Positions 2,658-61,779 are shown, numbered from the stretch's first letter. The stretch is DNA of 64,000 nt from Mycobacteriales bacterium (GCA_035476575.1 DATILL010000150.1:5139-69138); one strand, 5' to 3'. Notes: generated from the letters alone by a model not told the origin. Numbers and translations are program-made.

Positions 2658-2686
2658 GTTCGACGCCTCCTGATTCGTTCGCTCGC

Positions 2687-3112
2687 TCACGGCGACTTCG
2701 CGAGCGTGTCGTCGATCCAGGCTCGCAGTGTCGCCACCGGTGCGGCGCCGGCCTTGCGGGCGAGGACCTGCCCGCCACGCATGACCATCAGCGTGGGCAC
2801 GGCCTGCACCGCGAACCGCTCGGCCAGCTTGGGTGCGGCGTCCACATTGATCTTCACGAGCTTCACCCGGCCAGCCAGCTCCCGGGCCACCTGCTCCAGC
2901 GCCGGGCTCACCCGCCGGCACGGCCCGCACCACGGCGCCCACAGGTCGACCACCACCGGGATCGAGGCGGCCTCGGCGACCTCGTGGAAGTCGTCGTCGC
3001 CCGCGTCGGCCACCCACGGCAGCGCGGCCTTGCAATGGCCGCAACGCGGGCCTCCGGTCGCCGCCGCCGGCACCCGGTTCTTCCGGCCGCAGTTGGGGCA
3101 CTGGATCACCAT
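2687..3112 (-). CDS. trxC: thioredoxin with N-terminal zinc-finger (thioredoxin-2 type)
   Basis: 141 aa. CPNC..CGHC at the N-terminus plus the WCGPC active site. Confidence 0.85.
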   Translation of the reverse strand: MVIQCPNCGRKNRVPAAATGGPRCGHCKAALPWVADAGDDDFHEVAEAASIPVVVDLWAPWCGPCRRVSPALEQVARELAGRVKLVKINVDAAPKLAERFAVQAVPTLMVMRGGQVLARKAGAAPVATLRAWIDDTLAKSP

Positions 3113-3125
3113 GATCGCGCACCTC

Positions 3126-7604
<4,479 letters not shown>

Positions 7605-21009: not shown

Positions 21010-21085
21010 GCGCCGCACCGCAGGCCGCCGTCCCGGAGAGCGCCGCACCGCAGGCCGCCGTCCCGGAGAGCACCGCACCGGAGAG
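21010..21085. repeat. 30-bp perfect tandem duplication plus a partial third copy
   Basis: GCGCCGCACCGCAGGCCGCCGTCCCGGAGA at 21010-21039 and 21040-21069, then GCACCGCACCGGAGAG. Lies in a convergent intergenic gap. Confidence 0.85.
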
Positions 21086-21095
21086 CCGGGCACGG

Positions 21096-25216: not shown

Positions 25217-25457
25217 TGCACCAGCACAGATGCTGTCAGCCGCCCTGGGCGACCCGGCCCGTCCAGCCAAGCCACCGGACGCACGCGCCTTCGGTCGCCT
25301 GCATCGGAGTCGACGCGCTGATCGTTCGGTGCTGACGGGGGACCCTGACAGGGGAACAATGGGTCGCGGGCGCAGGGTTGTGCTCCAGGACCCCCGTTGT
25401 CGTCGCTGAGTGTGTCCCAGGCCCGTGTCCGAGGCCCGTCTCCCGAGGAGTAGCACC

Positions 25458-26636
25458 GTGTCCCTGCCGCCGTTGGTCGAGCCGGCCGCTGAGCTAACCG
25501 CCGCCGAGGTACGCCGATACAGCCGCCACCTGATCATCCCCGAGGTAGCGATGGACGGGCAGAAGCGGCTGAAGAACGCCAAGGTGCTCGCCGTCGGCGC
25601 CGGTGGGCTCGGCTCGCCCACCCTGATGTATCTGGCTGCGGCCGGGGTCGGCACCCTCGGCATCATCGACTTCGACGTCGTCGACGAGTCCAACCTGCAG
25701 CGCCAGGTCATCCACGGCCAGTCCGACGTCGGCCGGCCCAAGGCCGAGTCGGCGCGCGACTCGATCCGGGAGATCAACCCGCTGGTCGCCGTCCGGCTGC
25801 ACGCCGTCCGGCTGGACTCCTCCAACGCGCTGGAGATCTTCGCCGAGTACGACCTGATCGTGGACGGCACCGACAACTTCGCCACCCGGTACCTGGTGAA
25901 CGACGCCTGCGTGCTGCTCGGCAAGCCGTACGTCTGGGGCTCGATCTACCGCTTCGACGGGCAGGCGTCAGTGTTCTGGGCCGAGCACGGGCCGTGCTAT
26001 CGGTGCTTGTACCCGGAGCCGCCGCCGCCCGGCATGGTGCCCTCCTGCGCCGAGGGCGGCGTGCTCGGCGTGCTGTGTGCCTCGATCGGGTCCATCCAGG
26101 TCAACGAGGCGATCAAGGTGCTGACCGGCATCGGCCAGCCGCTGGTCGGCCGGCTGGTGGTCTACGACGCCCTGGAGATGAGCCACCGCACGATCCGGGT
26201 GCAGAAGGACCCGGAGTGCCCGCTGTGCGGCAAGAACCCGTCCATCACCGGGCTGATCGACTACGAGGCGTTCTGCGGCACCGTGTCGGAGGCGGCCGCC
26301 GAGGCGGCGAAGGGCTCGACCATCACCGCTGCCGAGCTCAGGCAGTGGCTGGACGACGGCCGGAAGATCGAGCTGGTCGACGTGCGCGAGCCGGCGGAGT
26401 ACGAGATCGTCCGGATCCCCGGCTCGGTGCTGGTGCCGAAGGGTGAGATCGTGTCCGGCGCGGCGCTGGCCACGCTGCCGCAGGACCGGCAGGTGGTCCT
26501 GTACTGCAAGTCCGGCGTGCGCTCGGCCGAGGCGCTTGCGGTGCTCAAGCAGGCTGGCTTCAGCGACGCGGTGCATGTGCAGGGTGGGGTCACCGCCTGG
26601 GCCACCCAGGTCGACCGGACCCTGCCGACGTACTGA
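25458..26636 (+). CDS. moeZ: MoeZ/MoeB-type adenylyltransferase-sulfurtransferase (E1-like + rhodanese)
   Basis: 392 aa from GTG 25458 (GAGGAG 8 nt upstream): RYSRHLIIPEV..VLAVGAGGLGSP..CYRCLYPEPPPP..CPLCG. C-terminal rhodanese domain (VLYCKSGVRS). Confidence 0.9.
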   Translation: MSLPPLVEPAAELTAAEVRRYSRHLIIPEVAMDGQKRLKNAKVLAVGAGGLGSPTLMYLAAAGVGTLGIIDFDVVDESNLQRQVIHGQSDVGRPKAESARDSIREINPLVAVRLHAVRLDSSNALEIFAEYDLIVDGTDNFATRYLVNDACVLLGKPYVWGSIYRFDGQASVFWAEHGPCYRCLYPEPPPPGMVPSCAEGGVLGVLCASIGSIQVNEAIKVLTGIGQPLVGRLVVYDALEMSHRTIRVQKDPECPLCGKNPSITGLIDYEAFCGTVSEAAAEAAKGSTITAAELRQWLDDGRKIELVDVREPAEYEIVRIPGSVLVPKGEIVSGAALATLPQDRQVVLYCKSGVRSAEALAVLKQAGFSDAVHVQGGVTAWATQVDRTLPTY

Positions 26637-26649
26637 CGCCGCCGACGTC

Positions 26650-26982
26650 GTGGCCGGAGCGTCGTTCGCCGAGCGGGTGCTTGCCGTGGTGGAGCGGATC
26701 CCCGCCGGGTGGGTGATGTCGTACGGCGATGTCGCGGAGCTTCTCGGCTCGCGGGCGCCGCGCATGGTCGGCCAGGTGATGGCCCGGCAGGGTGGCGGCG
26801 TGCCGTGGCATCGGGTCTTGCGGTCGGACGGCACGCCCGCGCCCGGCCTTGCGGACCGACAGCTTGCCTTGTTGGCCGCCGAGGGGGTGCCGATCGTCGG
26901 CGGGCGGGTGGACATGCGGCTGGCCCGGTACTCTCCCGACTTGTCACAGGAAGGTCACCGCGAACTGGAGCCAGGCTGGTGA
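26650..26982 (+). CDS. MGMT-family DNA-binding domain protein (alkyltransferase-like)
   Basis: 110 aa from GTG 26650: FAERVLAVVERIPAGWVMSYGDVAELLG..VPWHRVLRSDG. Confidence 0.75.
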   Translation: MAGASFAERVLAVVERIPAGWVMSYGDVAELLGSRAPRMVGQVMARQGGGVPWHRVLRSDGTPAPGLADRQLALLAAEGVPIVGGRVDMRLARYSPDLSQEGHRELEPGW

Positions 26983-27020
26983 CCTTTGCTCGACAGGTGC
27001 GCGCCCGGCCCACTTCCCAT

Positions 27021-27098
27021 GTGGTCACCTCTCGGCGTTGTGGTGACCTGTTGTTGTCTGCGGCGCTCGTGTGGTGACCTCTCGGCGTTGTGGTGACC
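27021..27098 (+). repeat. dispersed hairpin repeat family, locus A: two 28-nt units at 50-bp period
   Basis: GTGGTCACCTCTCGGCGTTGTGGTGACC (27021-27048) and GTGGTGACCTCTCGGCGTTGTGGTGACC (27071-27098). A looser GGTCACC-N18-GGTGACC pair at 26953-26984 spans the MGMT-like stop codon. Confidence 0.9.
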
Positions 27099-27482
27099 TC
27101 TTGGGGGTGGATGCCGGCGTCGGGCTTTCCTTACGGCCGGGTCGCCTGTCGCTGCGGTTCGCCTGCGACGTCCGTGTCATCTGCCCTGCGGGAGCGAAAG
27201 CCAGGCCCTCGCCCGCGGCACCTGGCTCTTACGTCGCCCGCACCGCGCTCAACCTCCTGGGTATGCATAACCGACGACGGACGTCCCCGAGCTCCTGGCA
27301 CCGCGATCAATCGACCCGCAGCGCAATCGGCGGACGATCGTGGCCAGCGGCGGACACGCTGACCTGCGACCGATTCACGGCGACCACGGTTAGTCATTCA
27401 CTGATCGCGCTCCGAGCAGACTACAGCCGGGTATCGGCGCGGGTCCCCGAGCCGGTGGGGCCGGCATGGTGTCCTGTCCGCC

Positions 27483-30400
27483 GTGACGGGAGCCCGGACC
27501 AGCTCCGCGGCCGGGTCCACGCCCTATCGGCTGGTCCGCGCGCGGGCCCGGCCGCACCGCCCACCGGTCCTCGACCCGGCCCAGCAGGCGGTGCTCGCCC
27601 ATCCCGGCGGCCCCCTGCTGGTGCTGGCCGGGCCTGGCACCGGCAAGACCACCACCCTTGTGGAGACCGTCGTGGCCAGGATCGAGGCCGGCGTCGACCC
27701 CGAGCACGTGCTGGTCCTCACCTTCAGCCGCAAGGCCGCCGCCGAGCTGCGCGACCGCATCACCATCCGGCTCGGCCGGACCACCCGCGAGCCGCTGGCC
27801 CGCACCGTCCACTCCTACGCCTTCGGTGTGCTACGCCGGCAGGCCGGGCCGCTGGAGCCTCCCCGGCTGCTCACCGGGCCCGAGCAGGACATGGTGATCC
27901 GCGAGCTGCTGGCCGGCGACGTCGAGACCGGCGCCGCGTACTGGCCGGTCGACCTCCGCCCCGCCCTGCTGACCCGCGGGTTCGCCGAGGAGCTGCGCGA
28001 CCTGCTCGCCCGGGCCACCGAGCGCGGCATCGGCCCGATCGAGCTGGCCCGCTACGGCGCCGAGCAGCGCCGCCCCGACTGGATCGCCGCGGCCCGGTTC
28101 TTCCGCCAGTACCTCCAGGTCACCGCGCTGGCCGACCGCACCGCCTACGACCCGGCCGAGCTGATCGACGCCGCGCTGGACGTCTTCGCCGACGACCGCG
28201 CCGCGCTGGCCCGGGAGCGGGCTGCGCGCCGCCGCATCTACGTCGACGAGTACCAGGACGTCGACCCGGCCCAGGAAGCCCTCCTGCGCACCATCGCCAC
28301 CGGCGCGGACGAGCTGATCGTCGTCGGCGACCCGGACCAGTCCATCTACGGCTTCCGCGGCTCCGACCCCGGCTGCCTGCGCCGGTTCCCCGAACGGTTC
28401 GCCCCGCGCGACGGGCGCCCGGTCCCGGTGCTCGCCCTGGACGTCTCCCGCCGCGCCGGCCGCGACCTGCTGGCCGCGTCCCGCCGGATCGCCACCCGGC
28501 TCCCGGCCGGCCCGCCCGGCGCCCGGCACCGCGAGCTCGCCCCGGCCCGCGGCCGGCCCGGCGGCAGCATCGACGTACGCCTCTTCCGCACCCCCAGCGA
28601 GGAGGCCGCGTACGTCGCACACCGGCTCCGGGTCGCGCACCTGATGCGCGGCGTCCCCTGGCGCGAGATGGCAGTCCTGGTCCGGTCCACCACCCGCCAG
28701 CTCCCGATCCTGCGCCGCGCCCTCACCTCGGCCGGCGTACCGGTCGCCGTCACCGCCGACGATCTCCCGCTCATCGACACCACCGGCGCCGCCCCGCTGC
28801 TGCTCCTGCTCCGCTGCGCACTCCAGCCGGACGACGCCCTGGACGAGAACACCGCCATCGAGCTGCTGTCCGGGCCCCTCGGCGGGGCCGACACGCTCGC
28901 CCTGCGCCGGCTGCGCCAACACCTGCGCCAGCTCGAGATCGCGGCCGGCGGGCGGCGGCAGTCCGGCCCGCTGCTGGTCGAGGCGCTGCGCGAGCCGGAC
29001 ACCCTCACCGTGCTGCCCGAGCGGGTCGCCGACCCCGCGCTGCGCATCGTCCGGCTGCTCGCCGCCGCGCGCGAGGAGCACGCCGCCGGCGGCACCGCCG
29101 AGGACGTGCTGTGGGCGGTCTGGTCCGGCTCCGGGCTGGCCGAGACCTGGCACCGGGCCAGCCTGCGCGGCGGCCTGGCCGGCGCCACGGCCGACCGCGA
29201 CCTGGACTGCGTGGTCGCGCTGTTCGACGCTGCCGCGGCGTTCGTGGACCGGCTGCCCCGGGCCGGGCCGCTGGCCTTCCTCGACCACCTCGCCGGCCAG
29301 CAGATCCCTGGCGACACCCTGGCCGCGCACGCCCCCGTCGGCGACGCCGTCCGGATCTTGACCGCGCACGCCGCCAAGGGTCTTGAGTGGCAGGTGGTGT
29401 GCGTGGCCGGCGTACAGGAGGCGAGCTGGCCCGACCTGCGTCGCCGCGGCACGCTGCTTGGCTCCGAGGCGCTGGTCGAGCTGGTCGCCGGCTGGGGCCC
29501 GCCGCCAGGGAGCACGACGGCCCCGCCGTCGCCGGTCGCGCCGCTGCTCGCCGAGGAACGCCGGCTGTTCTACGTCGCGATCACCCGGGCCAGCCGCGAG
29601 CTGGTGGTCACCGCCGTCAGCGGCGAGGAGGAGCAGCCGTCCCGGTTCCTGGACGAGCTGGTTCCGCTGGTCCCGGCGCCTGGCATGCCCCACGACGCCG
29701 GCCGGCCCATCGACTCGGTGCCGCGCACCCTGGCGCTGCCCGCGCTGGTGGCCGAGCTGCGCGCCGTCGCCTGCGACCCGGCCGAGCCCGCCGTACGCCG
29801 TCGCGCCGCGGCCGGCGAGCTGGCCAAGCTGGCCGCCGCCGGTGTCCCCGGCGCGCACCCGGACCAGTGGTGGGGCCTGCCCGAGCTGTCCGACCCGAGG
29901 CCGCTGCGGGACCCGGGCGAGCCGGTGCCGGTCTCGCCGTCGCAGGTGGAGAAGTACGCAGACTGCCCGCTGCGCTGGCTGCTGGAGGCCTCCGGCGGCA
30001 CCGGCGGGCCGTCCGCCGCGCAGGGCCTCGGCACCCTGGTCCATGAGCTGGCCGCCCTGGCCGCCGACCCGGACCAGGCCACCGCTGAGGCGCTGCTGCC
30101 CCGGCTGGAGCAGGCCCTGGACGGCATGGACCTCGGCGGCCCGTTCGCCAGCCGGCGGGAGAAGGCCCGGGCCCGCCAGATGCTCGGCAAGTTCCTGGAG
30201 TGGCTGGCCGGCAGCCGGTCCCGCTGGCGGCTCGTCGGGGTGGAGCTCGCCTTCGAGGTGAAGGTCGGCGACCGGGCCCGGCTGACCGGCCGGGTGGACC
30301 GGCTGGAGCAGGACGGCGACGGCAGGCTGGTCGTCGTCGACCTGAAGACCGGCCGGACCGCCGTACGCAAGGATGACGTGCCCGCGCACCCGCAGCTCGG

Positions 30401-30695
30401 CTGCTACCAGCTTGCCGTCGCCGAGGGCGGCCTGACCGACGCCGACGGCAGGCCGGCCGAGCCCGGTGGCGCCGCTCTGGTCCAGCTCGGCGGTACGACG
30501 CACGGCCCCAAGCAGCAGGACCAGCCGGCGCTGGCCGAGACCGGCGACCCGGCATGGGCGGCCAAGCTGGTCATCGACGTGGCCGACGGAATGGCGGGCA
30601 CCGCCTTCCCCGGCGTGGAGAGCAGCGCCTGCCGGGTCTGCCCGGTACGGTCCTCCTGCCCGGTGCACGACGAGGGGCGGCAGGTGACGGAGTGA
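27483..30695 (+). CDS. adnA: helicase-nuclease AdnA-like subunit (UvrD-like + RecB-type nuclease)
   Basis: 1070 aa: LAGPGTGKTTTL, VDEYQDVDP, and a C-terminal nuclease with a Cys cluster (..ACRVCPVRSSCPV). Paired with the downstream subunit. Confidence 0.85.
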   Translation: MTGARTSSAAGSTPYRLVRARARPHRPPVLDPAQQAVLAHPGGPLLVLAGPGTGKTTTLVETVVARIEAGVDPEHVLVLTFSRKAAAELRDRITIRLGRTTREPLARTVHSYAFGVLRRQAGPLEPPRLLTGPEQDMVIRELLAGDVETGAAYWPVDLRPALLTRGFAEELRDLLARATERGIGPIELARYGAEQRRPDWIAAARFFRQYLQVTALADRTAYDPAELIDAALDVFADDRAALARERAARRRIYVDEYQDVDPAQEALLRTIATGADELIVVGDPDQSIYGFRGSDPGCLRRFPERFAPRDGRPVPVLALDVSRRAGRDLLAASRRIATRLPAGPPGARHRELAPARGRPGGSIDVRLFRTPSEEAAYVAHRLRVAHLMRGVPWREMAVLVRSTTRQLPILRRALTSAGVPVAVTADDLPLIDTTGAAPLLLLLRCALQPDDALDENTAIELLSGPLGGADTLALRRLRQHLRQLEIAAGGRRQSGPLLVEALREPDTLTVLPERVADPALRIVRLLAAAREEHAAGGTAEDVLWAVWSGSGLAETWHRASLRGGLAGATADRDLDCVVALFDAAAAFVDRLPRAGPLAFLDHLAGQQIPGDTLAAHAPVGDAVRILTAHAAKGLEWQVVCVAGVQEASWPDLRRRGTLLGSEALVELVAGWGPPPGSTTAPPSPVAPLLAEERRLFYVAITRASRELVVTAVSGEEEQPSRFLDELVPLVPAPGMPHDAGRPIDSVPRTLALPALVAELRAVACDPAEPAVRRRAAAGELAKLAAAGVPGAHPDQWWGLPELSDPRPLRDPGEPVPVSPSQVEKYADCPLRWLLEASGGTGGPSAAQGLGTLVHELAALAADPDQATAEALLPRLEQALDGMDLGGPFASRREKARARQMLGKFLEWLAGSRSRWRLVGVELAFEVKVGDRARLTGRVDRLEQDGDGRLVVVDLKTGRTAVRKDDVPAHPQLGCYQLAVAEGGLTDADGRPAEPGGAALVQLGGTTHGPKQQDQPALAETGDPAWAAKLVIDVADGMAGTAFPGVESSACRVCPVRSSCPVHDEGRQVTE

Positions 30696-30733: not shown

Positions 30734-33700
30734 ATGACCGTTGAGCTGGTACGCGACGCGACCTTCCCCCACCCGCCGCTGATCGGTCCGGCCGAGCTGG
30801 CGGCGGCCCTGGGCCTGCACCCGCCCACCGCGGAGCAGGAGGCGGTGATCGCGGCCCCGCTGGCCCCCGCCGTGGTGGTGGCCGGGGCCGGCTCCGGCAA
30901 GACCGAGACCATGTCGGCTCGGGTGGTCTGGCTGGTCGCGAACGGTTATGTGCGCCCGGACGAGGTGCTCGGCCTGACCTTCACCAACAAGGCCGCCGCC
31001 GAGCTGGCCGGCCGGATCCGGATCCGGCTGGCCCAGCTTGCCCGCAACGGCCTGAGCACCGACACGGACGGCGAGCCGACCGTGCTCACCTATCACGCCT
31101 ACGCCGGCCGGCTGGCCGCCGAGCATGCGCTCCGGCTGGCCGTGGAGCCGACCTCCCGGCTGCTCACCGGGGCGCTGAGCTGGCAGCTCGCCGCCCGGGT
31201 CGTCCGGCGGTACGACGGCGAGCTGCCGAGCCTTGACGTCGCCGAGTCCACCGTGCTCGGCTACCTCCTGGACCTGGCCGGTGAGCTGGCCGAGCACCTG
31301 GTCGGCGAGGCCGACCTGCGGGCCTGGACGGCGGCGTTCCGGGACCGGGTCGAGGGGCTGCCGGCTGGCCCGCGGTACAAGCAGCCGAGCGCCAAGATGC
31401 GCGCCATCCTCGCGGCGGCGGACGCCCGGTGCGAGCTGCTGCCGCTGGTCGCGGCGTACCAGCGGGCCAAGCGGGAGGCGACCGCGATGGACTTCGGCGA
31501 CCAGATGTCGCTGGCCGCCCGGATCGCCGTCGGCTTCGGGGAGGTCGGCCGGGCCGAGCGGGCGCGCTACCGGGCCGTGCTGCTGGACGAGTTTCAGGAC
31601 ACCGGGCACTCCCAGCTCGTGTTGCTGCGGGCGCTGTTCGGCGGCGCCGTTGATGGCTGCAGCCATCCGGTTACGGCGGTCGGCGACCCGTGCCAGTCGA
31701 TCTACGGTTGGCGCGGCGCCAGCGCCGGCAACCTGACCCGCTTCCCGGCGCACTTCCCAGCCTCCGACGGCGCCCCGGCGGCGGTGCTGCCGCTGTCCAC
31801 CAGCTTCCGCAACGACCGGCGCATCCTGGCCGCGGCCAACCTGCTCTCCACCGAGCTGCGGGCCGCTGGGTTGGGAAGTGCTGGGTCGGGGGCCGCTAGG
31901 TCGGGGGGGGCTGGGTCGGGGGGCGCGGGGCGGGCCGGAGAGCAACGCGCCGAGGTCGGCGTCCTCACCCCCGGCCCGGCGGCGGGGGACGGGCGGGTGC
32001 GGGCCGCGCTGCTGCCGACCGTCGCCGACGAGGCGGCGTGGCTGGCCGACCGGATCGCGGCGTTGTGGACGGCGGACGCACCGCGGCGGGCCCGGCCGTA
32101 CGCCGGCCGCGGCGGGTCCAGCGGCAGCCCCGCTGGCGGACGCGGTGGTGAGCCCAGCGGCGGACGCAGCATCGCAGTGCTGTGCCGGCGGCGCAGCCAG
32201 TTCCAGCGGGTGGCGGCGGAGCTGCGGGCACGGGGTGTGCCGGTGGAGCTGGTCGGCCTGGGCGGGCTGCTCGCCACCCCGGAGGTGCGCGACGTGGTGA
32301 GCACGCTGCGGGTGCTGTCCGACCCGTCGGCGGGCGACGCGGTGGTCCGGCTGCTGACCGGGGCACGCTGGCGGCTCGGCCCGCGTGACCTGGCCGCGCT
32401 CGGCCGGCGGGCCCGCGAGCTGGCCCACGCCCGCCCGGGCCATCCCGCTGGCCCGGGTAGTACGGCCGGGACGCCGGAGCCCGACGTACGCCCGGCGCCC
32501 GACGTGGCTGACGACGCCAGCCTGGTTGAGGCGCTGGACGACCCCGGCCCGGCGGCCAGCTACTCCCCGGCCGGGCATCGGCGGCTCCTGGCGCTGCGCC
32601 GGGAGCTGGCCGGGCTGCGGCGGCGGGTCGGCCAGCCGCTGCCGGAGCTGGTCGCGGAGGTGGAGCGTGCGCTGCTGCTCGATATCGAGGTCGGCATCCG
32701 GGGCAGCGCCGGCCGGGTGCACCTCGACCGGTTCCTCGACGTGGCCGCCCGGTTCGCGGAGGACGCCGAGGTGGCCACCCTGGGCGCGTTCCTCGGTTAC
32801 CTGGAGGCGGCCGAGTCCACCGAGCGCGGCCTGGAGGCCGGCGTCGTCGAGGTGAACGCCGACCGGGTGCAGGTGCTGACCGTGCACGCGGCCAAGGGGC
32901 TGGAGTGGGACGTCGTGGCGGTGCCCGGCCTGACCCTCGGGGTCTTCCCGGACCGGGACGCGGTGACCGGCTCGGGCTGGGCCGCCGACCCGGCGGCACT
33001 GCCGTACCCGCTGCGCGGCGACGCCGACGACCTGCCCGACCTCGATCCGGCGGCGGCCGACGACCAGGCCGAGCTGGAACAGCTCCGGGTCGACTTCGTG
33101 CGGGCCTGCAAGGACCGCGGCGAACGGGAGGAACGCCGGCTGGCCTACGTCGCGGTGACCCGGGCGAGGCGGCTGCTGCTCTGCTCCGGCTACTGGTGGG
33201 ACGACGCGACGAAGCCACGCGGCCCGTCGCCGTTCCTCACCGAGCTGCGGCCCGTCGCCGAGGTGGACACCTGGGCCGACCCGCCCGGCCCGGAGGAGAC
33301 CAACCCGCTGCTCGTCGTGCGCCGGGAGGCGCCGTGGCCGTACGACCCGCTGGGCGGCCGGCGTGCCGACGTGGATGTCGGCGCCGAGCTGGTCAGGGCC
33401 GCGCTCGCCGGGTTGGCCGAGGCTGGCGCGGGCCGTCCGGCGCCGGTCGAGGCTGCTGAGCCGACGTTGGCGCCGGCGCCGGCACCGGCACCGGCACCGG
33501 ACGACGGCGCGCTGCTCGCCCGGGAGGAGGTGACCGCCGCGGGCTGGCGGCGCGAGGCCGACCTGCTGCTGGCCGAGCGAGCCGCCCGGGTAGCGACCGG
33601 GGGCCGGGTCGACGTACCGCTGCCCGCGCACCTGTCGGTCTCGGCGCTGGTGGCGCTGGCCGCGGACGCCGCCGAGCTGGCCCGGCGGATCCGCCGGCCG

Positions 33701-34261
33701 ATGCCGTTTCGGCCGGCGCCGATGGCCCGGCGTGGCACCGCCTTCCATGCCTGGCTGGAGGAGCGGTACGGCGGCGAGCGGCTGCTGGACCTGGCCGAGC
33801 TGCCCGGTGCGGCCGATGACGAGGCCGCGCCGGACACCGACCTGGAGCTGCTGCAGGAGCGGTTCCTGGCCAGCGAGTGGGCGGACCGGTCGCCGGTCGA
33901 GGTGGAGGTGCCGTTCGAGGCGGTGCTCGGCGGGCTGGTGGTGCGCGGCCGGATGGACGCCGTGTTCGCCGAGCCCGACGGCGGGTTCACTGTGGTCGAC
34001 TGGAAGACCGGCGCCCGGCCGACCGGCGCCGCTGCCCGGGCCGCCGCCGTACAGCTCGCGGCGTACCGGCTGGCCTGGGCGGCGCTGGCCGGCGTACCGC
34101 TGGACCAGGTGCGCGCCGCGTTCCACTACGTGCGGTCGGGGGTGACGGTGCGGCCGGTTGACCTGCTGGACGCGGCCGGGCTGCGTGCCCTGACTGAGCA
34201 GCTCCCCGCCGCACCGGACCAACCCCAACAGGTCACCACACGGCGGCCGGCGACAACGTGA
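30734..34261 (+). CDS. adnB: helicase-nuclease AdnB-like subunit
   Basis: 1175 aa: AGAGSGKTETM, LLDEFQDTGHSQ, VHAAKGLEWD, and a C-terminal PD-(D/E)xK-like region (GRMDAVF..VVDWKTG). Confidence 0.85.
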   Translation: MTVELVRDATFPHPPLIGPAELAAALGLHPPTAEQEAVIAAPLAPAVVVAGAGSGKTETMSARVVWLVANGYVRPDEVLGLTFTNKAAAELAGRIRIRLAQLARNGLSTDTDGEPTVLTYHAYAGRLAAEHALRLAVEPTSRLLTGALSWQLAARVVRRYDGELPSLDVAESTVLGYLLDLAGELAEHLVGEADLRAWTAAFRDRVEGLPAGPRYKQPSAKMRAILAAADARCELLPLVAAYQRAKREATAMDFGDQMSLAARIAVGFGEVGRAERARYRAVLLDEFQDTGHSQLVLLRALFGGAVDGCSHPVTAVGDPCQSIYGWRGASAGNLTRFPAHFPASDGAPAAVLPLSTSFRNDRRILAAANLLSTELRAAGLGSAGSGAARSGGAGSGGAGRAGEQRAEVGVLTPGPAAGDGRVRAALLPTVADEAAWLADRIAALWTADAPRRARPYAGRGGSSGSPAGGRGGEPSGGRSIAVLCRRRSQFQRVAAELRARGVPVELVGLGGLLATPEVRDVVSTLRVLSDPSAGDAVVRLLTGARWRLGPRDLAALGRRARELAHARPGHPAGPGSTAGTPEPDVRPAPDVADDASLVEALDDPGPAASYSPAGHRRLLALRRELAGLRRRVGQPLPELVAEVERALLLDIEVGIRGSAGRVHLDRFLDVAARFAEDAEVATLGAFLGYLEAAESTERGLEAGVVEVNADRVQVLTVHAAKGLEWDVVAVPGLTLGVFPDRDAVTGSGWAADPAALPYPLRGDADDLPDLDPAAADDQAELEQLRVDFVRACKDRGEREERRLAYVAVTRARRLLLCSGYWWDDATKPRGPSPFLTELRPVAEVDTWADPPGPEETNPLLVVRREAPWPYDPLGGRRADVDVGAELVRAALAGLAEAGAGRPAPVEAAEPTLAPAPAPAPAPDDGALLAREEVTAAGWRREADLLLAERAARVATGGRVDVPLPAHLSVSALVALAADAAELARRIRRPMPFRPAPMARRGTAFHAWLEERYGGERLLDLAELPGAADDEAAPDTDLELLQERFLASEWADRSPVEVEVPFEAVLGGLVVRGRMDAVFAEPDGGFTVVDWKTGARPTGAAARAAAVQLAAYRLAWAALAGVPLDQVRAAFHYVRSGVTVRPVDLLDAAGLRALTEQLPAAPDQPQQVTTRRPATT
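31861..31940 (+). repeat. G-rich imperfect tandem repeat inside adnB (nine G-runs, one G8 homopolymer)
   Basis: GGGTTGGGAAGTGCTGGGTCGGGGGCCGCTAGGTCGGGGGGGGCTGGGTCGGGGGGCGCGGGGCGGG. It encodes the low-complexity insert LGSAGSGAARSGGAGSGGAGRAG. Confidence 0.8.
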
Positions 34262-34339
34262 GGTCACCACAACGCCGAGTGGTGACCACACGGGCGGTGC
34301 GGGCAACGATAGGTCACCACAACGCCGAGTGGTCACCAC
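34231..34339 (-). repeat. dispersed hairpin repeat family, locus B (reverse orientation): two full units at 50-bp period plus a partial unit
   Basis: GGTCACCACAACGCCGAGTGGTGACCAC (34262-34289) and GGTCACCACAACGCCGAGTGGTCACCAC (34312-34339). A partial GGTCACCACA at 34231 lies in the adnB 3' end. Confidence 0.9.
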
Positions 34340-34552
34340 ACGGGGAGGCCGGCGGGCTGCCCGGGCAAGTAAGGGGCGCGGCCGAGGGAGGGGCTCTCGA
34401 CCGCGCCTTCCCACATGGTGACATCCTCTGGCCGATCGCGCTGCAACATCCCGGGGAGTATCCAGAGAGCCGGGCCAAATGGTGGGGATTTCACACCCGA
34501 TCGGAGCTGTGCTGGGGTGTTTGCGCCGCAACTGCGCTGCCCGGGCTGGCCT

Positions 34553-35926
34553 CTACCGGGTCGCCGAGGCTGCAGCATACCTCTGGTCGGAGCCGGCCGC
34601 GCCGCCGTCCTCCGGCCGAGCCGTCGACGGGGGTGGCGCGGGGCGCTGGCCAGCCCGTTTCGACCACGCTGTCGACGGCGCCTCGACGTAGCGGTACATC
34701 AGCGCGGCGCAGCCGAACGCGACAACCAGCGCGATCACCGCCTCGACGATCCGTCCGGCCGGCGCCGGCATGGTGCCGCGCAGCAGGCTGAACGTCGTCT
34801 GGAAGATCGGCAGATGCACCAGGTACAGCGAGTACGATCGCTCGCCGACCCAGGCCAGCCCTGGCACCGTCGGCCGCCATGACCGCAGCGGCCATGACCG
34901 CGGTCGCCACCATCTCGGCGGCCGTCCCGCCTGGCCCCGTTCGGCCGCTCCCCGTTCGGCCGTCCGCCGTTCGGCGGCAAGGCAGGAGCACAGCAGCAGA
35001 AAGAACGCGGCGCCGGCCGCCGGGTCCCAGACCAGGTCGGTCAGCGCCACCGGATGCCCGCCCAGCGACCCGAACCCGGCCCGGTGGTGGAACAGCCACC
35101 ACACGCCGTACAGGCTGAGCAAGGCGGTCACCCGGGAGGTCAGCGCCTGCGGAAGCCGCTGGCGGCCGACATACCACTCCGCCGCCACCGCGCCGAGCAG
35201 CCATTCGACGATCCGGGCCGGCGCCTGCTGGTACAGCAGGGTGGCCACCCAGGTCCGCTCCGGACCCAGCGGCAGCAGGCTCTTCGGCACCGACGGCATG
35301 ACCAGCATGGCGCCGGCCCGCCAGGCCAGCGTGATCCCGAGACCCACCAGCAGCCAGGTCAGCGGCCTGGTCCGGCGCAGCCAGCGCATCGCCCCGGCGT
35401 AGATGAGGTAGAGGTGCTCCTCCAGCGCCAGGCTCCAGGTGACCATCAGCCAGCCGGCCGGCAGCACCGTGGCCCCCACCACGGTCAGGTGCACGCAGGC
35501 CAGCATCCACACCGGCATCGGGCTGCCGGTGAACCCCCACGTGGCGTGCGCCGAGCTGTGCCGCACCACGCCGTTCAGGCCGATCAGGCAGAGGGCGAGG
35601 CAGACCGCCACGAGGTACGCCGGATGCAGCCGGAGGAACCGCCGCAGCAGGAACTGCCCGGCCCGAAACTCCCCGCCCGCCGCCACCCGTAGATGGATCG
35701 AGAAGCCGGAGAGCACCAGGAACAGGCTGACCCCGAGGAACCCGACCGCCCGCACCTCCCGCAGCGGCGCCAGCCACGGCGTGGCGTCGACCCAGCCGCC
35801 GGTGTCGAGGTGGTGCATCAGGACGAGCAGGACGGCCACTCCACGCAGCGCATCCACGGCACGAGAACGGCGCACGACACCTCCGGGAACGGGACCATAC
35901 CGAGCCCGCCGGCCCGTGCCCAACAC
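34553..35926 (-). CDS. acyltransferase family 3 membrane protein
   Basis: AVDALRGVAVLLVLMHHL..FLGVSLFLVLSGFSI..RRFLRLHPAY, multi-TM. The start is uncertain (GTG 35926, TTG 35923 or GTG 35875). Further upstream it would collide with the divergent peptidase gene. Confidence 0.75.
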   Translation of the reverse strand: MLGTGRRARYGPVPGGVVRRSRAVDALRGVAVLLVLMHHLDTGGWVDATPWLAPLREVRAVGFLGVSLFLVLSGFSIHLRVAAGGEFRAGQFLLRRFLRLHPAYLVAVCLALCLIGLNGVVRHSSAHATWGFTGSPMPVWMLACVHLTVVGATVLPAGWLMVTWSLALEEHLYLIYAGAMRWLRRTRPLTWLLVGLGITLAWRAGAMLVMPSVPKSLLPLGPERTWVATLLYQQAPARIVEWLLGAVAAEWYVGRQRLPQALTSRVTALLSLYGVWWLFHHRAGFGSLGGHPVALTDLVWDPAAGAAFFLLLCSCLAAERRTAERGAAERGQAGRPPRWWRPRSWPLRSWRPTVPGLAWVGERSYSLYLVHLPIFQTTFSLLRGTMPAPAGRIVEAVIALVVAFGCAALMYRYVEAPSTAWSKRAGQRPAPPPSTARPEDGGAAGSDQRYAAASATR

Positions 35927-35991
35927 GCCCCACGGCGGTTCCCCCGCCCTGCAAGTGAGCGATCGGCCGTTCGCGGGATAATCTCGGCGAC

Positions 35992-37296
35992 GTGCCGACG
36001 CTGAAGCTGCCCGCTCCGACCTACCCACTGGAGCGCAGTGCCCTGCCCAACGGGCTCCGGGTGCTGCTCGCGCCGGACCGCGCCGCCCCCGTCGTGGGCA
36101 TCGCGGTCTACTACGACGTCGGCATCCGGTCTGAGCCGGAAGGCCGCACCGGGTTCGCACACCTGTTCGAGCATCTGATGTTCCAGGGCTCGCGGAACCT
36201 GGAGAAGCTGGCACACTTCCGGTACGTGCAGTCCTCCGGCGGCACCTTCAACGGCTCGACCCATCTCGACTACACCAACTACTACGAGGTTCTGCCGAGC
36301 AACGCGCTGGAGCGGGGGCTGTTCCTGGAGGCGGACCGGATGCGCGCCCCCACGATCACCGAGGAGAACCTGGCCAACCAGATCTCGGTGGTCAAGGAGG
36401 AGATCCGGGTCAACGTGCACAACCGGCCGTACGGCGGGTTCCCGTGGCTGGCGCTGCCCCCGGTGCTGTTCGAGACCTTCCCCAACGCGCACGATGGCTA
36501 CGGCTCGTTCGACGACCTCGAGGCGGCCACACTGGACGACGCCCGGCAGTTCTTCACCGACTACTACGCGCCGGCCAACGCCGTGCTCTGCGTGGCCGGC
36601 GACATCGACCCGGAGCAGGCGTTCGCGCTGGCCGAGCGGCACTTCGGCGACATCCCGGCCCGCCCGACGCCGCTGCGGCCGGACTTCACCGAGCCCGACC
36701 TGACCGCCGAGCGGCGGGTCACGCACACCGACAAGCTGGCGCCCAACCCGGCGCTGGCCGCCGCCTGGCGGGTGCCCGACCCGGTCGGCGCGCTCGGTGA
36801 CTACCTGCCGTTCGTGGTGCTGGCCGAGGTGCTCGGCGACGGTGACGCCTCCCGGCTGCAGCAGCGGCTGGTCCGCAAGGACCGCACTGCCACCGAGGTG
36901 AACGCCTACCTGTCGATGTTGGGTGACCCGTTCGACGTGCGGGACCCCACCGCGTTCCTGCTGCAGGCCCATTACACCCCGGCCAGCTCAGCCGACGCCG
37001 TGCTGGCCACGGTGGACGACGAGCTGGCCATGCTGGCGACGGACGGGCTGCGTCAGGGCGAGCTGGACCGGGTCAAGGCCCGGATCGCTGCCCAGCTCCT
37101 GCGCGACGTGGACGCCGTGCTCGGCCGCACCCTGGCGCTGGCCGCGTTCGAGCAGCAGCACGGCCGGGCCGAGCTGCTCGCCGAGCTCCCTGTCCTGATC
37201 GGCGCGGTGACGGCCGAGCAGATCGCGGCCGCTGCCGCCACCCTCGTTCCCAACCGGCGCGCCGTCGTCGAGCTCGTTCCCGGAGGCGCCCAGTGA
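35992..37296 (+). CDS. M16 family zinc peptidase (active-site subunit)
   Basis: 434 aa with the inverted zincin motif GFAHLFEHLMFQGS. GTGA overlap with the next gene. Confidence 0.85.
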   Translation: MPTLKLPAPTYPLERSALPNGLRVLLAPDRAAPVVGIAVYYDVGIRSEPEGRTGFAHLFEHLMFQGSRNLEKLAHFRYVQSSGGTFNGSTHLDYTNYYEVLPSNALERGLFLEADRMRAPTITEENLANQISVVKEEIRVNVHNRPYGGFPWLALPPVLFETFPNAHDGYGSFDDLEAATLDDARQFFTDYYAPANAVLCVAGDIDPEQAFALAERHFGDIPARPTPLRPDFTEPDLTAERRVTHTDKLAPNPALAAAWRVPDPVGALGDYLPFVVLAEVLGDGDASRLQQRLVRKDRTATEVNAYLSMLGDPFDVRDPTAFLLQAHYTPASSADAVLATVDDELAMLATDGLRQGELDRVKARIAAQLLRDVDAVLGRTLALAAFEQQHGRAELLAELPVLIGAVTAEQIAAAAATLVPNRRAVVELVPGGAQ

Positions 37297-38705
37297 ACGG
37301 CGGAACAGCAAACGGCGGAACAGTGAACGGCGGGGGAACGAGCGGCGGGGGAACGAGCGGCGGGACAGTGAACGGCGGGAGCGCGCTCAGGCGTCCGGTG
37401 CCGCCGCTCGGGCCGCCGCCGCAGACCAGCCAGCCGACCTCGACCGAGCGCCAGCTCGCCGACGGGCTGACCGTGGTCGCGGTCCGCCGGCCCGGCGTCC
37501 CGCTGGTCGAGCTGCGGCTGCGCATCCCGTTCGGCAGCACCGTGCCGTCCCACCCGGCCCAGTCCAGCCTGCTTGGTGAGACCATGCTGACCGGCACCCC
37601 TCGGCACAGCCAGGTTGAGCTGGCCGAGGCCGTGCAGGCGCTCGGCGGGCATCTGTCGGTCGGCACCGACTCCGACCGGCTGCTGATCGGCGGGGCGGTG
37701 CTGGCGGACGGCCTGCCGACGCTGCTCGACCTGGTTGCCGAGGTGGTGACCGAGGCGACGTACCCGGCCGGCGAGGTGGAGGTGGAGCGGGACCGGCTGG
37801 TCGAGCACCTGTCCATCGCCCGGTCCCAGCCGTCCGTGCTGGCCCGCGAGGCGCTGCGCCGCCGGATGTATGGCGATCATCCGTACGCCCACGAGATCCC
37901 GGAGGCGGCGGCGGTGGCGGAGACCACGCCGGACCAGCTCCGCGCCCTGCATGCCAGCCGGGTGGTGCCGGCCGGCGCGACCCTGGTGCTGGTGGGTGAC
38001 CTGCAGCCGGACCGGCTGCTGGACCGGGTCGAGGCCGCCCTGGCCGACTGGAAGGTCGAGGGCACGCCGACGCCGCTGCCGCCGCTGCCCCCGGTGCGGC
38101 CGGCGGTGACCGAGCTGGTGCACCGGGCCGGCGCCGTCCAGTCCTCGATCCGGCTCGGCGGTGCGGCGCCCCGCCGCGACGACCCGGCGTACCCGGCCCT
38201 GCACCTGGCCAACCTCGTCTTCGGCGGCTACTTCTCCTCCCGGCTGGTGGAGAACATCCGCGAGGACAAGGGCTACACCTACAGCCCGCACAGCCGGATC
38301 GACCACGGCGCCGCCGGCTCCACCCTGGTCGTCGACGCGGACGTGGCGAACGACGTCACCGCTCCGGCGCTGCTGGAGATGTGGTACGAGCTGGGCCGGA
38401 TGGCCACCCTGCCGGTCAGCGCGAGCGAGCTGGACGACGTCCGGCAGTACGCCGTCGGCACGCTGGCCATGTCCACCGCGACCCAGGCCGGACTGGCGTC
38501 CATGCTGTCCGCCCTGGCCGGCACCGGGCTCGGCCTGGACTGGCTGCGGGAGTACCCGGGCAAGCTGGCCGCGGTGACGGTGGGGGAGGCGTTCGAGGTG
38601 GCCCAGGCGGTGCTCGCCCCGGCCGGGCTGGTCACCGTCGTGCTCGGAGACGCCGACCAGGTCGCATCCGGGCTGGCGGTCCTCGGCCCGGTCGAACGCC
38701 GGTGA
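37293..38705 (+). CDS. M16 family peptidase-like subunit (no HxxEH seen)
   Basis: 470 aa: LTVVAVRRPGVPLVELRLRIPFG.. Peptidase_M16 C-terminal-like. The N-terminus is a tandem NGGT(A/V) repeat. Confidence 0.8.
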   Translation: MNGGTANGGTVNGGGTSGGGTSGGTVNGGSALRRPVPPLGPPPQTSQPTSTERQLADGLTVVAVRRPGVPLVELRLRIPFGSTVPSHPAQSSLLGETMLTGTPRHSQVELAEAVQALGGHLSVGTDSDRLLIGGAVLADGLPTLLDLVAEVVTEATYPAGEVEVERDRLVEHLSIARSQPSVLAREALRRRMYGDHPYAHEIPEAAAVAETTPDQLRALHASRVVPAGATLVLVGDLQPDRLLDRVEAALADWKVEGTPTPLPPLPPVRPAVTELVHRAGAVQSSIRLGGAAPRRDDPAYPALHLANLVFGGYFSSRLVENIREDKGYTYSPHSRIDHGAAGSTLVVDADVANDVTAPALLEMWYELGRMATLPVSASELDDVRQYAVGTLAMSTATQAGLASMLSALAGTGLGLDWLREYPGKLAAVTVGEAFEVAQAVLAPAGLVTVVLGDADQVASGLAVLGPVERR

Positions 38706-48922: not shown

Positions 48923-49521
48923 GGGCCGCCGTACTGCTGCTGACGGGGGCGCCTGGGCACCCGGCCTGTCCGCCGGGCGTGGACCAGGTCCGGTTCGGCC
49001 GCGCGCTGGCTGAGGACGTCGTCGACCTGCTGGCCACACTGTCCGATGTGGATACCCTGATCGCGGCGACGCCGTCCCGGCTGGACGACGTGGCAGCCAT
49101 CCGCTGGCCGGGCACGGTGGTGCTGCGGCTGTCCGAGGTGGATGGTGTGGTGTCGCTGCTCGGCCGGATCGCGGGCTACGACGAGGCCGCGGTCTTCGCG
49201 CCGGACGTACCGGACCTGCCCGCGCTGCTAGCGGCCAAGCCGTTCAGCGGACTGTCGACAGCGGAGGTCGCGGTGCTGCCGGCCAGCACCGGCGGTCTGG
49301 TGGCGCTGGCCAGCCGGCTGCCGGTGCCGGGCTGGCTGCCGTCCACCGTGGACCTCGACGACCCGGCCGCGCTGGATCGGTTACGGGCTGCCGCCCCCAG
49401 GCCGGACGACGTGGTGGTCGCGCCGGCCTGGCCCCGGCTGCGCACCCCGACCGACCTGGTCCGGCTGGATCCGGCGCTGGAGGGCTGGGAGGCCACCCGC
49501 GCCCTGGTGTCCGACAGCTAG
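48919..49521 (+). CDS. hypothetical protein (family not recognised with confidence)
   Basis: 200 aa. GTGA overlap with the upstream gene and high-GC third positions. The stop abuts the locus C palindrome. Confidence 0.5.
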   Translation: MRAAVLLLTGAPGHPACPPGVDQVRFGRALAEDVVDLLATLSDVDTLIAATPSRLDDVAAIRWPGTVVLRLSEVDGVVSLLGRIAGYDEAAVFAPDVPDLPALLAAKPFSGLSTAEVAVLPASTGGLVALASRLPVPGWLPSTVDLDDPAALDRLRAAAPRPDDVVVAPAWPRLRTPTDLVRLDPALEGWEATRALVSDS

Positions 49522-49657
49522 CCCCCAGTGGTCACCACTACGCCGTGTGGTGACCACTGGGGGTCTCCGGACACCGTGTGGTCACCTCTGCGCCGTGTGG
49601 TGACCTCTTGGGGTCTGGCGGCAACGAGAGGTCACCACAACGCCGAGAGGTGACCAC
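49522..49657. repeat. dispersed hairpin repeat family, locus C: three units (two forward at 50-bp period, one reverse)
   Basis: 49522-49563 is a perfect 17-bp-arm palindrome, CCCCCAGTGGTCACCAC-TACGCCGT-GTGGTGACCACTGGGGG. Also GTGGTCACCTCTGCGCCGTGTGGTGACC (49578-49605) and GGTCACCACAACGCCGAGAGGTGACCAC (49630-49657). Confidence 0.9.
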
Positions 49658-49677
49658 ACGGGGAGTGGATAGGGCGG

Positions 49678-50898
49678 TCAGGGCTCCAGCAGGGGGAAGT
49701 CACCGGGCCCGGCCTCGGTCCGCTCGGCGAAGCCGTCCGGGTCGTCCAGGTCGTCGGCGGCGGGCAGCAGGTCCGGGTGCGCCCATACGGCGTCCCGGCC
49801 ATCGACGCCACGGCGGTCGGCCAGCACCTGCCACAGCCGGGCCGCGTCGCGCAGCCGGCGCGGCCGCAGCTCCAGCCCGACCAGGGTGGCGAAGGTCTGC
49901 TCGGCCGGGCCGCCGCTGGCCCGGCGGCGGCGCAGCGTCTCGCGCAGCGCGTCCGCGCCGGGCAGCCGGGCCTCGGCGGCCTGCGCCACCACCGCGTCCA
50001 CCCAGCCCTCGACCAGCGCCAGCAGCGTCTCCAGCCGGGCCAGCGCGGCCTGCTGCTCCGGCGTGGCCTGCGGCTCGAACAGCCCGCCCTGCAGCGCGTT
50101 CTGCAGGCTCTCCGGGTTGGTGGGGTCCAGCTCGGCCATGACCTGCTCGATGGCCGAGGTGTCCACGCTGATGCCACGGGCGTAGGCGTCCACCGTGTCC
50201 AGCAGCCGCTGCCGCAGCCACGGCACATGCCCGAACAGCCGCTGGTGGGCCGCCTCGCGCAGCGCCAGGTAGAGCCGCACCTCCTCGGCCGGCAGCTCCA
50301 GCCCGCCGCCGAACACGGCGATGTTCTCCGGGACCAGCGCGGCCACCCCGGCTGGGCCGAGCGGCAGGCCGATGTCGGTGCCGGACAGCACCTCGGTCGC
50401 CAGCTCGGCCAGGGCCTGGCCGACCTGGGCGCCGAACATCAGCCCGCCGACCGAGTTGAGCATGCCGATGAGCTGCCCGGCCTGCGCCTTGGCCTCCTCC
50501 GGCAGCGCCGTGCCCATCGCGCCGACCACCCGGGCGGCCACAGGGTCGCACAACGCCGGCCACACAGCGAGGGTCTTGTCGACCCATTCCACCCGGGTCC
50601 ACGCCTCGGTCGCGGTCACCCCGGACGGCAGCGTGGTCGCTTCGTTCAGCCAGAGGTCGGCGAGCGCGACTGCCTCGATCGCCTGCTGCCGGTCCGCCGC
50701 GTCGGTCGGCCGGTGCTGGCTGGCCAGGTGCGAGGTGGCTAACTGCCGCGCCAGGTCCCAGTTGACCGGGCCGCCCTGCCAGGACATCAGCTTCTGTAGC
50801 TCGGCGAAGAGCGGGAACATGCCGAGCGGGTTGTCCCCGCCGCCGCGTTCCTCAGGGTTTCGGTCGGGTGAGCCGAACCCGAACGGTACGTCGCTCAT
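49678..50898 (-). CDS. DUF2342-type putative zinc-dependent hydrolase
   Basis: 406 aa: MSDVPFGFG..LFAELQKLMSWQGGPVNWDLARQLA..LREAAHQRLFGHVPWLR. Confidence 0.8.
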   Translation of the reverse strand: MSDVPFGFGSPDRNPEERGGGDNPLGMFPLFAELQKLMSWQGGPVNWDLARQLATSHLASQHRPTDAADRQQAIEAVALADLWLNEATTLPSGVTATEAWTRVEWVDKTLAVWPALCDPVAARVVGAMGTALPEEAKAQAGQLIGMLNSVGGLMFGAQVGQALAELATEVLSGTDIGLPLGPAGVAALVPENIAVFGGGLELPAEEVRLYLALREAAHQRLFGHVPWLRQRLLDTVDAYARGISVDTSAIEQVMAELDPTNPESLQNALQGGLFEPQATPEQQAALARLETLLALVEGWVDAVVAQAAEARLPGADALRETLRRRRASGGPAEQTFATLVGLELRPRRLRDAARLWQVLADRRGVDGRDAVWAHPDLLPAADDLDDPDGFAERTEAGPGDFPLLEP

Positions 50899-57287: not shown

Positions 57288-57364
57288 CGCGGGGTGGAGC
57301 AGCTCGGTAGCTCGCTGGGCTCATAACCCAGAGGTCGGAGGTTCAAATCCTCCCCCCGCTACCA
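57288..57364 (+). tRNA. tRNA-Met (CAU), initiator-type features
   Basis: The cloverleaf folds by eye. Anticodon loop CTCATAA, three G:C pairs in the anticodon stem (GGG/CCC), C1 unpaired with U72, T-arm GGAGG-TTCAAAT-CCTCC, and an encoded CCA. Confidence 0.95.
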
Positions 57365-61563: not shown

Positions 61564-61631
61564 CCGAGTCCGACGTACCAAAAAGACTATAGACCCGGCC
61601 ACCGACAGAACCGAGTCGCAAAGGAAGACCT

Positions 61632-61761
61632 GTGGTGACCTGTCGTCGTTGTGGTGACCTGTTGTTGTCTGTGGGGAACGATAGGTCACCACAACGCCGG
61701 TAGGTGACCACACGGGGGGCGAGGGGAACGATAGGTCACCACAACGCCGGTAGGTGACCAC
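61632..61761. repeat. dispersed hairpin repeat family, locus D: one forward unit, two reverse units at 50-bp period
   Basis: GTGGTGACCTGTCGTCGTTGTGGTGACC (61632-61659), followed by TGTTGTTGTCTG as in locus A. GGTCACCACAACGCCGGTAGGTGACCAC at 61684-61711 and 61734-61761. Confidence 0.9.
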
Positions 61762-61779
61762 ACGAGGAGCGGGGAACGG

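Follow-up and report, generated by a model that had tools for sequence, protein, structure and literature searches.

What is the short repeated sequence that lies between the gene for an MGMT-DNA-binding-like protein and adnA, and by which machinery could it have come there? A sequence-only reading of the window (the whole stretch of 64,000 nucleotides of Mycobacteriales DNA analysed here) had described a 28-nt unit found at four loci, had ranked it with the REP/BIME repeats and had seen in its hairpins possible terminators or stabilisers of mRNA. The following sections deal with what the repeated element is, which part of it is conserved, how it may spread and to which known family it comes closest.

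The repeats of the window

The window contains 11 exact matches to the pattern GTGGTSACC-N10-GTGGTGACC, and each of 100 dinucleotide shuffles none, which bears out the unit and its four loci. Its 9-mer, GTGGTSACC, is present in 33 copies, against 1.9 expected. The matches form four clusters, at 27.02-27.10, 34.23-34.34, 49.53-49.66 and 61.63-61.76 kb (loci A to D), and Tandem Repeats Finder calls a period of 50 at loci B, C and D. The repeats and the genes around them are as follows; the genes were confirmed with Pfam.

25410-26636, moeZ-like gene
ending at 26982, MGMT-DNA-binding-like gene
26953-26984, plus strand, variant pair GGTCACC-N18-GGTGACC, off the 19/31-bp lattice described below, folding as a 10-12 bp stem
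27016-27120, plus strand, array A, two modules in the same orientation (units 27021-27048 and 27071-27098), then a TCTTGGGGG tail
27276-27326, plus strand, remnant (51 nt) of a DUF222-HNH (13E12-like) gene, from its 3' end, located past array A, in the orientation of the array, and before adnA
27483-30695, adnA
30734-34261, adnB
34215-34345, minus strand, array B, two modules (units 34312-34339 and 34262-34289), with a terminal half-unit at 34231-34239 and a TGTTGGGG tail
34553-36214, convergent acyltransferase gene
ending at 49521, hypothetical gene
49522-49662, both strands, array C, three modules of mixed orientation (49528/49530-49557, 49578-49605 and 49630-49657)
49678-50898, convergent Zincin_2 gene, with its stop codon at 49678
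61627-61766, both strands, array D, one plus module (61632-61659), then two minus modules (61684-61711 and 61734-61761)

Locus A lies in a co-directional gap, directly past a stop codon. Loci B and C occupy convergent gaps, array C filling the gap between the stop codons of the hypothetical and Zincin_2 genes, and locus D is downstream of a gene ending at 61563. The units had been said always to come in pairs. Paired units are indeed found at the loci, but single units and half-units also occur, such as that at 34231-34239. The segments quoted as evidence for a kinship between the inter-unit sequences are all present in the window. The additional GGTCACC-N18-GGTGACC pair reported across the stop codon of the MGMT-like gene was recovered as well (26953-26984, with the TGA at 26980-26982); it is probably an old or variant member of the family.

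Rfam matched a single element in the window, a tRNA-Met (CAT) at 57288-57364, which is the sole RNA gene detected there, and assigned no family to the repeats; searches of loci A and C at relaxed E-values returned generic hairpin matches far below the gathering scores. Two tandem repeats unrelated to the family, both apparently coding, are found at 21010-21088 (30-bp unit, 2.6 copies, 93% matches) and at 37291-37380 (15-bp unit, 6 copies).

A 50-bp module in many copies

A strict 25-base pattern, GTGGTSACCNNNCGGCGTTGTGGTGACC, was scanned over 241 million metagenome records. It matched 104 stretches, every one from metagenome Ga0307470, amounting to 888 kb and none overlapping the window, whose own contig was not among them. 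On circumstantial grounds, these loci probably belong to the same population as the Mycobacteriales MAG that contains the window. A census of units, in which up to 2 mismatches were allowed in the 18 site bases, was then taken over about 0.95 Mb including the window, that is, over a part of the genome selected for containing arrays. It gave 368 units in 141 arrays of 1 to 5 units each, the commonest patterns being ++ (40 arrays), ++- (28), +++ (26), single units (19) and ++++ (8), followed by rarer types. The prediction of a family extending far beyond the four loci of the window, to the genome as a whole, is thus borne out within one population.

The repeated element is a module of 50 bp with a symmetric 12-7-12-7-12 arrangement: a flank, a GGTSACC site, a 12-nt loop, a second GGTSACC site and a second flank. 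Its consensus is cgccgcccgtGT-GGTSACC-TSTCGGCGTTGT-GGTGACC-TGTCGTTGcccg; the unit can alternatively be written cccgtGT-GGTSACC-TSTCGGCGTTGT-GGTGACC-TGTCGTTGcccgcgccg. Head-to-tail neighbours dominate (171 of 227 neighbouring pairs), and in 164 of these 171 the starts are exactly 50 bp apart. The constant 50-bp spacing claimed for all units holds for these same-orientation neighbours only, since the starts of opposite neighbours are 52 bp apart at +/- junctions (46 cases) and 48 bp apart at -/+ junctions (9 cases), the linker measuring 22, 24 or 20 nt according to the type of junction. With these three spacings, the distance between the centres of successive GGTSACC sites is 19 and 31 bp in turn, however the modules are oriented. 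The proposal that the true element is a 50-bp module is therefore upheld, with the 19/31-bp lattice of sites added to it.

Many arrays have CCCGTGTGGTSACC facing outward at both ends, sometimes in the form of a terminal inverted half-unit, and GGTCACC is preferred as the outermost site (about 79%, compared to 48% in internal units). About 10% of the units, among them that at 49578-49605, belong to a minority subfamily with the loop TSTGCGCCKT (GCGCCKT type), whose inner hexamer is nearly the reverse complement of the common CGGCGT and which is similar to the 3'-terminal part of the inter-unit spacer.

Absence from relatives and rewritten C-termini

The nearest other sequences found share 81% identity with the Zincin_2 protein and 72% with AdnB, and the 20-23 kb of DNA examined from relatives at 70-81% protein identity contain no unit. 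At locus C, the gap measures 156 bp in the window, compared to 43 and 25 bp, free of units, in two relatives; the gap between the MGMT-like gene and adnA measures 500 bp, compared to 52 and 60 bp. No match to the family was found in the viral contigs and PLSDB plasmids scanned, and an origin in a phage or a plasmid was set aside on this ground. A loose 18-base scan of species genomes returned at least 69 stretches. Those inspected, among them both stretches from Micromonosporaceae and the ones in which 9-mers were clustered, had matched by chance or within coding sequence. In the closest relative (L071:578-2952), TIR_2, NNH6 and NACHT-like genes flank a conserved UPF0182 gene; this region, a candidate defence island, is absent from the window.

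Two proteins of the window end in repeat sequence. Array B contains the stop codon of adnB (34259-34261) together with its last 14 codons or so, the repeat-encoded part extending from 34215 to 34261, and AdnB ends in ...LPAAPDQPQQVTTRRPATT where an orthologue ends in ...LPTAAT. The MGMT-like protein has a 13-residue C-terminal extension, LSQEGHRELEPGW* (26944-26982); the variant pair supplies its final 9 codons (GHRELEPGW) as well as the TGA. Neither this extension nor the 14-residue, repeat-encoded extension of AdnB is present in the corresponding L178 orthologue. As judged from the sequences, the C-terminus of both proteins has been rewritten, and its stop codon supplied, by the repeats. The shortness of the orthologous gaps and the lack of extensions in the orthologues mean that the repeats are insertions relative to these relatives.

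The repeat also generates spurious open reading frames, as had been remarked. In the plus orientation, each of the three frames meets a TGA, provided by the GGTGACC sites, within about 1.5 modules (e.g. 27021-27098), while the opposite strand of the G-centred sites, reading GGTCACC, contains no stop codon. Arrays of this kind rewrite protein C-termini, create false reading frames and would confuse both the annotation and the assembly of such MAGs.

Sites, not hairpins, are conserved

GGTCACC and GGTGACC are complementary, and the sequence-only reading had taken the resulting stems as the characteristic feature of the family. The comparison of units does not support this: what is conserved is the site. 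Both 7-mers are perfect in 246 of the 254 units recovered through the loop heptamer alone, while the loop core deviates from the consensus in 31% of the units recovered through their sites, and between arrays the spacers show a mean of 7.6 differences over 22 positions. Of 736 sites, 730 have C or G at the centre. The pairs of central bases at sites 1 and 2 (C/G in 183 units, G/G in 119, C/C in 53 and G/C in 7) agree no better with pairing than independence predicts, which implies that the intra-unit hairpin is not under selection for pairing; these statistics rule it out as a selected feature.

The longer hairpin that inverted neighbours can form fares no better. At the 46 +/- junctions, pairing extends to 84.2% of the cells of the full 36-bp hairpin, and to 85.2% after shuffling of the partners. 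Inverted neighbours are no more alike than pairs drawn at random, the mean number of differing positions being 3.8 and 3.5, respectively, and the third unit of ++- arrays resembles unit 1 as often as unit 2. This hairpin was likewise rejected as a selected feature. Very stable RNA folds are found solely where modules are inverted: the z-scores are -11.6 and -8.3 at locus C and -5.6 and -4.6 at locus D, and -1.6 and -2.9 for the same-orientation arrays A and B.

A palindrome whose centre toggles between C and G only, repeated at spacings exact to the base pair, is the pattern expected if a symmetric protein reads double-stranded DNA. The pattern suggests that the GGTSACC lattice is recognized in this form by a symmetric, presumably dimeric, protein. 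Which protein this might be is the most interesting point raised by the family.

Growth, spread and a possible host function

Two levels of propagation can be distinguished. Within arrays, spacers are identical in 27 of 67 pairs, and adjacent units of the same orientation are identical in 22% of cases, compared to 5% of random pairs, which shows that arrays grow by local duplication of 50 bp. Between arrays, 103 spacer pairs differ by at most one mismatch; the presence of the same spacer variants at different loci indicates that whole modules have spread from one locus to another. The ends of the arrays are sharp, the complementarity of the flanks stopping 3-7 nt outside the outer site, so that the arrays are not inverted duplications including host flanks. 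No target-site duplication was found in 37 arrays (offsets 0 to 19, k = 3-6). Together with the sharp ends, this argues against a mechanism of the DDE-type MITE kind, and the MITE class was rejected in spite of the TIR-like ends of many arrays.

We consider it rather probable that the family is a lineage-specific, non-coding, self-propagating repeat of the REP/BIME kind, in which the 50-bp module is what propagates and GGTSACC is what a symmetric protein reads. The arrays show that modules settle between genes, mostly no farther than about 25 nt from a stop codon, and that they sometimes take the place of the last codons of a gene along with its stop. Established arrays lengthen in 50-bp steps by local tandem duplication, with modules in either orientation on a single lattice of sites. 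The functional core would be the double-stranded GGTSACC palindrome bound by a symmetric (dimeric) protein, either the enzyme (nuclease or recombinase) by which the modules spread or a DNA-binding protein of the host, and spreading would take place without a cut-and-paste transposase of the DDE type. The hairpins of inverted modules, and any effect that these may have on termination or mRNA stability, would be by-products rather than selected properties.

The strong conservation of the 7-mers could reflect a host function instead of a requirement for propagation. The arrays would then be kept as chromosomal platforms to which a dimeric protein binds, for example gyrase, a condensin loader or one of the nucleoid-associated proteins. 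Precedents exist: the BIMEs of E. coli are bound by IHF and gyrase, and sopC of the F plasmid consists of tandem 43-bp units, each with a 7-bp inverted repeat. Several properties of the family are those of such a platform, namely the near-invariance of the 7-bp palindromes while loops and spacers drift, the C/G-only centre typical of a symmetric double-stranded site, the base-pair-exact 19/31-bp spacing in all three types of junction and the equal occurrence of arrays in either orientation relative to genes. Nevertheless, we regard this alternative as unlikely. The family is absent from the relatives at 70-81% identity and from all other metagenomes scanned, and so pervasive a host function would have to be very recent; moreover, arrays vary from 1 to 5 units and bear the marks of recent local duplication, and some of them truncate or extend host proteins.

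The search for a mobilising gene and the link with DUF222-HNH

A search for a RAYT-like transposase had been proposed; crude screens for HUH-plus-tyrosine (HUH/Y1) motifs in the six frames of the 0.95 Mb found none. The ten genes that are bracketed by two arrays are ordinary ones (vapBC, a tipA-like gene, P450s and others). In one of these cases (L085:2321-3374), a vapBC cassette (2508-3181) stands between two nearly identical ++- arrays in direct orientation, and the DNA directly beyond the first array is unusually AT-rich; the cassette may have been inserted into an array or have moved with it.

When all the sequences were compared with one another, a gene of about 1.3 kb was found in multiple copies; Pfam identifies it as DUF222 (PF02720). 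REP13E12/HNH endonuclease/DUF222 is among the categories of repetitive element given for Mycobacteria (PMC10589994). The following DUF222-HNH (13E12-like) copies were located, and many copies are pseudogenised or internally deleted.

L161:179-1650, DUF222-HNH copy
L114:1-520, DUF222-HNH copy
L141:10144-11609, DUF222-HNH copy
L154:1666-2422, DUF222-HNH copy
L099:7171-8215, DUF222-HNH copy
L094:9465-9904, DUF222-HNH copy
L133:11498-11974, DUF222-HNH copy

Of about 14 copies or fragments of DUF222, at least 8 have an array in the same orientation directly upstream. Array and conserved junction are situated about 200 bp upstream of the DUF222 start codon, and the junction is a conserved module of about 100 nt with a CATCGAC...GTCGATG hairpin. 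This raises the question of whether the arrays are cis-acting ends, landing pads or deletion derivatives of selfish DUF222-HNH elements, spread or targeted by the HNH nuclease. Arrays and 13E12-type elements would then form an HNH-nuclease counterpart of the REP/RAYT couple, with GGTSACC as the putative recognition site, and a palindrome centre restricted to C or G would fit cleavage and rejoining at a symmetric site.

In addition to the shared junction, four observations point in this direction. The association is seen in two subfamilies with only about 50% protein identity to one another; L094 and L133 both contain a deletion derivative whose array is joined to the gene near residue 304; a GGTCACC-like site opens the DUF222 leader; and in the window itself array A is followed by the 51-nt remnant at 27276-27326, which blastn matches to the C-terminal coding ends of the DUF222 copies of L099, L123 and L094. 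Against this, the junction module is present on only about 7 of the 141 arrays, the near-intact copies of L097 and L166 have no adjoining array, and at least one relative in which no array was seen, its DNA having gone unread, has a DUF222 gene at the corresponding locus. All the linked copies could stem from a single chance juxtaposition, and insertion at a hot spot beside arrays would explain the association with no mechanistic tie; REPs are indeed insertion hot spots for mobile elements. The association may thus reflect one ancestral juxtaposition, or the insertion of DUF222 genes beside arrays, and we find it quite doubtful that the 50-bp arrays are the ends or landing pads of these elements.

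Position relative to genes and the question of termination

Positions were determined relative to our own gene calls, based on codon usage. None of the 118 classifiable arrays lies within a called gene. The gaps that hold 114 arrays are co-directional for 47, convergent for 40 and divergent for 27 (about 24%), a last class that may include miscalled genes; the background consists of 500 co-directional, 155 convergent and 146 divergent gaps. Convergent gaps are thus occupied in 26% of cases, compared to 9% of co-directional ones. In co-directional gaps, the array is at a median distance of 22 nt past the upstream stop codon and 111 nt before the next start codon. For 95 genes, the stop codon falls between -30 and +35 nt of the array, and some stop codons lie inside the site itself (GG-TGA-CC). 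The rule that the repeats are confined to gene 3' ends and convergent gaps is obeyed by all the arrays of the window; it does not extend to the genome as a whole, where the 27 divergent cases break it.

The unit nearest to the gene is turned outward with its site-1 side at 73% of gene 3' ends and at 70% of gene 5' ends. This bias, being nearly equal at both, is a property of the array and not of transcription.

It had been suggested that the arrays are transcription terminators or mRNA stabilisers. The GGUCACC...GGUGACC hairpins, or those of about 30 bp formed by inverted modules, would then block the polymerase or, at the 3' end of the mRNA, 3' exonucleases. The proximity of the arrays to upstream stop codons and their enrichment in convergent gaps are what this would predict. 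The highly stable folds of loci C and D (z from -4.6 to -11.6) and the relatively T-rich tract, TSTYGTTG, that follows site 2 are also in keeping with it. However, neither hairpin shows covariation, and the stem centre carries a G/G or C/C mismatch in 47% of units; same-orientation arrays fold weakly; and a scan for consensus terminators found none at loci A and B. Unit orientation is alike beside gene 5' and 3' ends and bears no relation to transcription, and about a quarter of the arrays lie in divergent gaps, which together argue against a primary role in termination or mRNA stabilisation. Classification as intrinsic terminators was rejected on the scan, the orientation and the missing covariation, and we consider either role very unlikely.

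A last reading, that of degenerate CRISPR-like mini-arrays or of an assembly artefact, can draw on the fixed period with which a 28-nt repeat alternates with a 22-nt spacer, but is practically refuted by the conserved spacers, shared between loci, and by the number of loci (141 arrays, none of more than 5 units), an artefact being further contradicted by the occurrence of the family both in the contig of the window (an ENA record) and in JGI metagenome contigs.

Comparison with known systems

REPs are palindromes of 20-40 bp with a GTAG or CGTC tag, that mostly form dimers, either head to head or tail to tail, and lie where neighbouring ORFs are co-directional or convergent (PMC3733652). Those of the GTAG type are linked to RAYTs, those of the CGTC family have loops of 4-5 nt and stems with A/T at their first and second positions, and the survey lists no actinobacterium (PMC3733652). 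The present family shares with REPs and BIMEs a high copy number of short, imperfect palindromes, an extragenic location near gene 3' ends with enrichment in convergent gaps, conserved linkers within clusters, restriction to one species and the lack of target-site duplication. A unit of 26-28 bp with a 7-bp stem, present 368 times in 0.95 Mb, is within the REP range of size and abundance, and 87 of the 114 arrays are in co-directional or convergent gaps as defined by our own gene calls, the other 27 being in divergent ones.

The differences are in the architecture. The ends of the unit, cccGTGT-GGTSACC and GGTGACC-TSTYGTTG, carry neither a GTAG nor a CGTC tag; the stems lack A/T at their first and second positions and the loop has 12 nt instead of 4-5; the units follow each other head to tail with an exact period of 50 bp (171 of 227 pairs) rather than as head-to-head or tail-to-tail dimers; and the host is an actinobacterium. 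Fixed-length, conserved linkers are common to this family and BIMEs, but orientation here is mostly direct and not alternating. Unlike the partners of a REPIN, inverted modules show no excess of complementarity (84.2 against 85.2% at the 46 +/- junctions), and the crude screen of 0.95 Mb disclosed no RAYT.

REP/BIME is thus the closest known kind, as had been proposed, and the repeats are a variant within it: a real, genome-wide family that has none of the classical tags and for which no RAYT was detected. GTAG/CGTC tags and RAYTs define the classical REP/BIME and REPIN families, which are known mainly from Proteobacteria. A literature search returned no paper joining REP, RAYT and Actinobacteria, and the papers returned for the 9-mer were eukaryotic and viral only, apparently unrelated judging by their titles. 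What we find here is the ecology of REPs (high copy number, extragenic and stop-adjacent location, confinement to one lineage) in an uncultured actinobacterium with a different architecture, which suggests that intergenic space can be colonised in the manner of REPs by means of another machinery, one that recognizes a palindrome in double-stranded DNA.

BOX elements of pneumococci and Correia elements of Neisseria are similarly modular: their internal tandem modules vary in number and their ends are inverted, as in the many arrays here that end in CCCGTGTGGTSACC on both sides. They are set apart from the present arrays by the lack of target-site duplication in the latter and by the repetition of the end palindrome in every module. 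We know of no cognate IS element for the 50-bp module.

Compared by description only, the MIRU-VNTR loci of Mycobacterium offer another parallel. These are tandem units of 40-100 bp found at dozens of dispersed intergenic loci, where they abut ORF ends and vary in copy number by unit steps; MIRUs have a single orientation relative to the operon and reported small overlapping ORFs. The arrays resemble them as dispersed, intergenic tandem units of Mycobacteriales that abut ORF ends, but have a period, 50 bp, that is not a multiple of 3 and modules in both orientations. MIRUs are not known to have a lattice of palindromes as their basis.

Finally, the multi-copy DUF222 genes of this Mycobacteriales genome recall the REP13E12/DUF222-HNH elements of Mycobacterium tuberculosis, with the difference that a subset of the copies here carries 50-bp arrays at the 5' end. 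We know of no described association of 13E12 elements with a short-repeat array. The physical link makes the DUF222-HNH protein a concrete candidate, and could illuminate a mycobacterial repeat family that has long been enigmatic.
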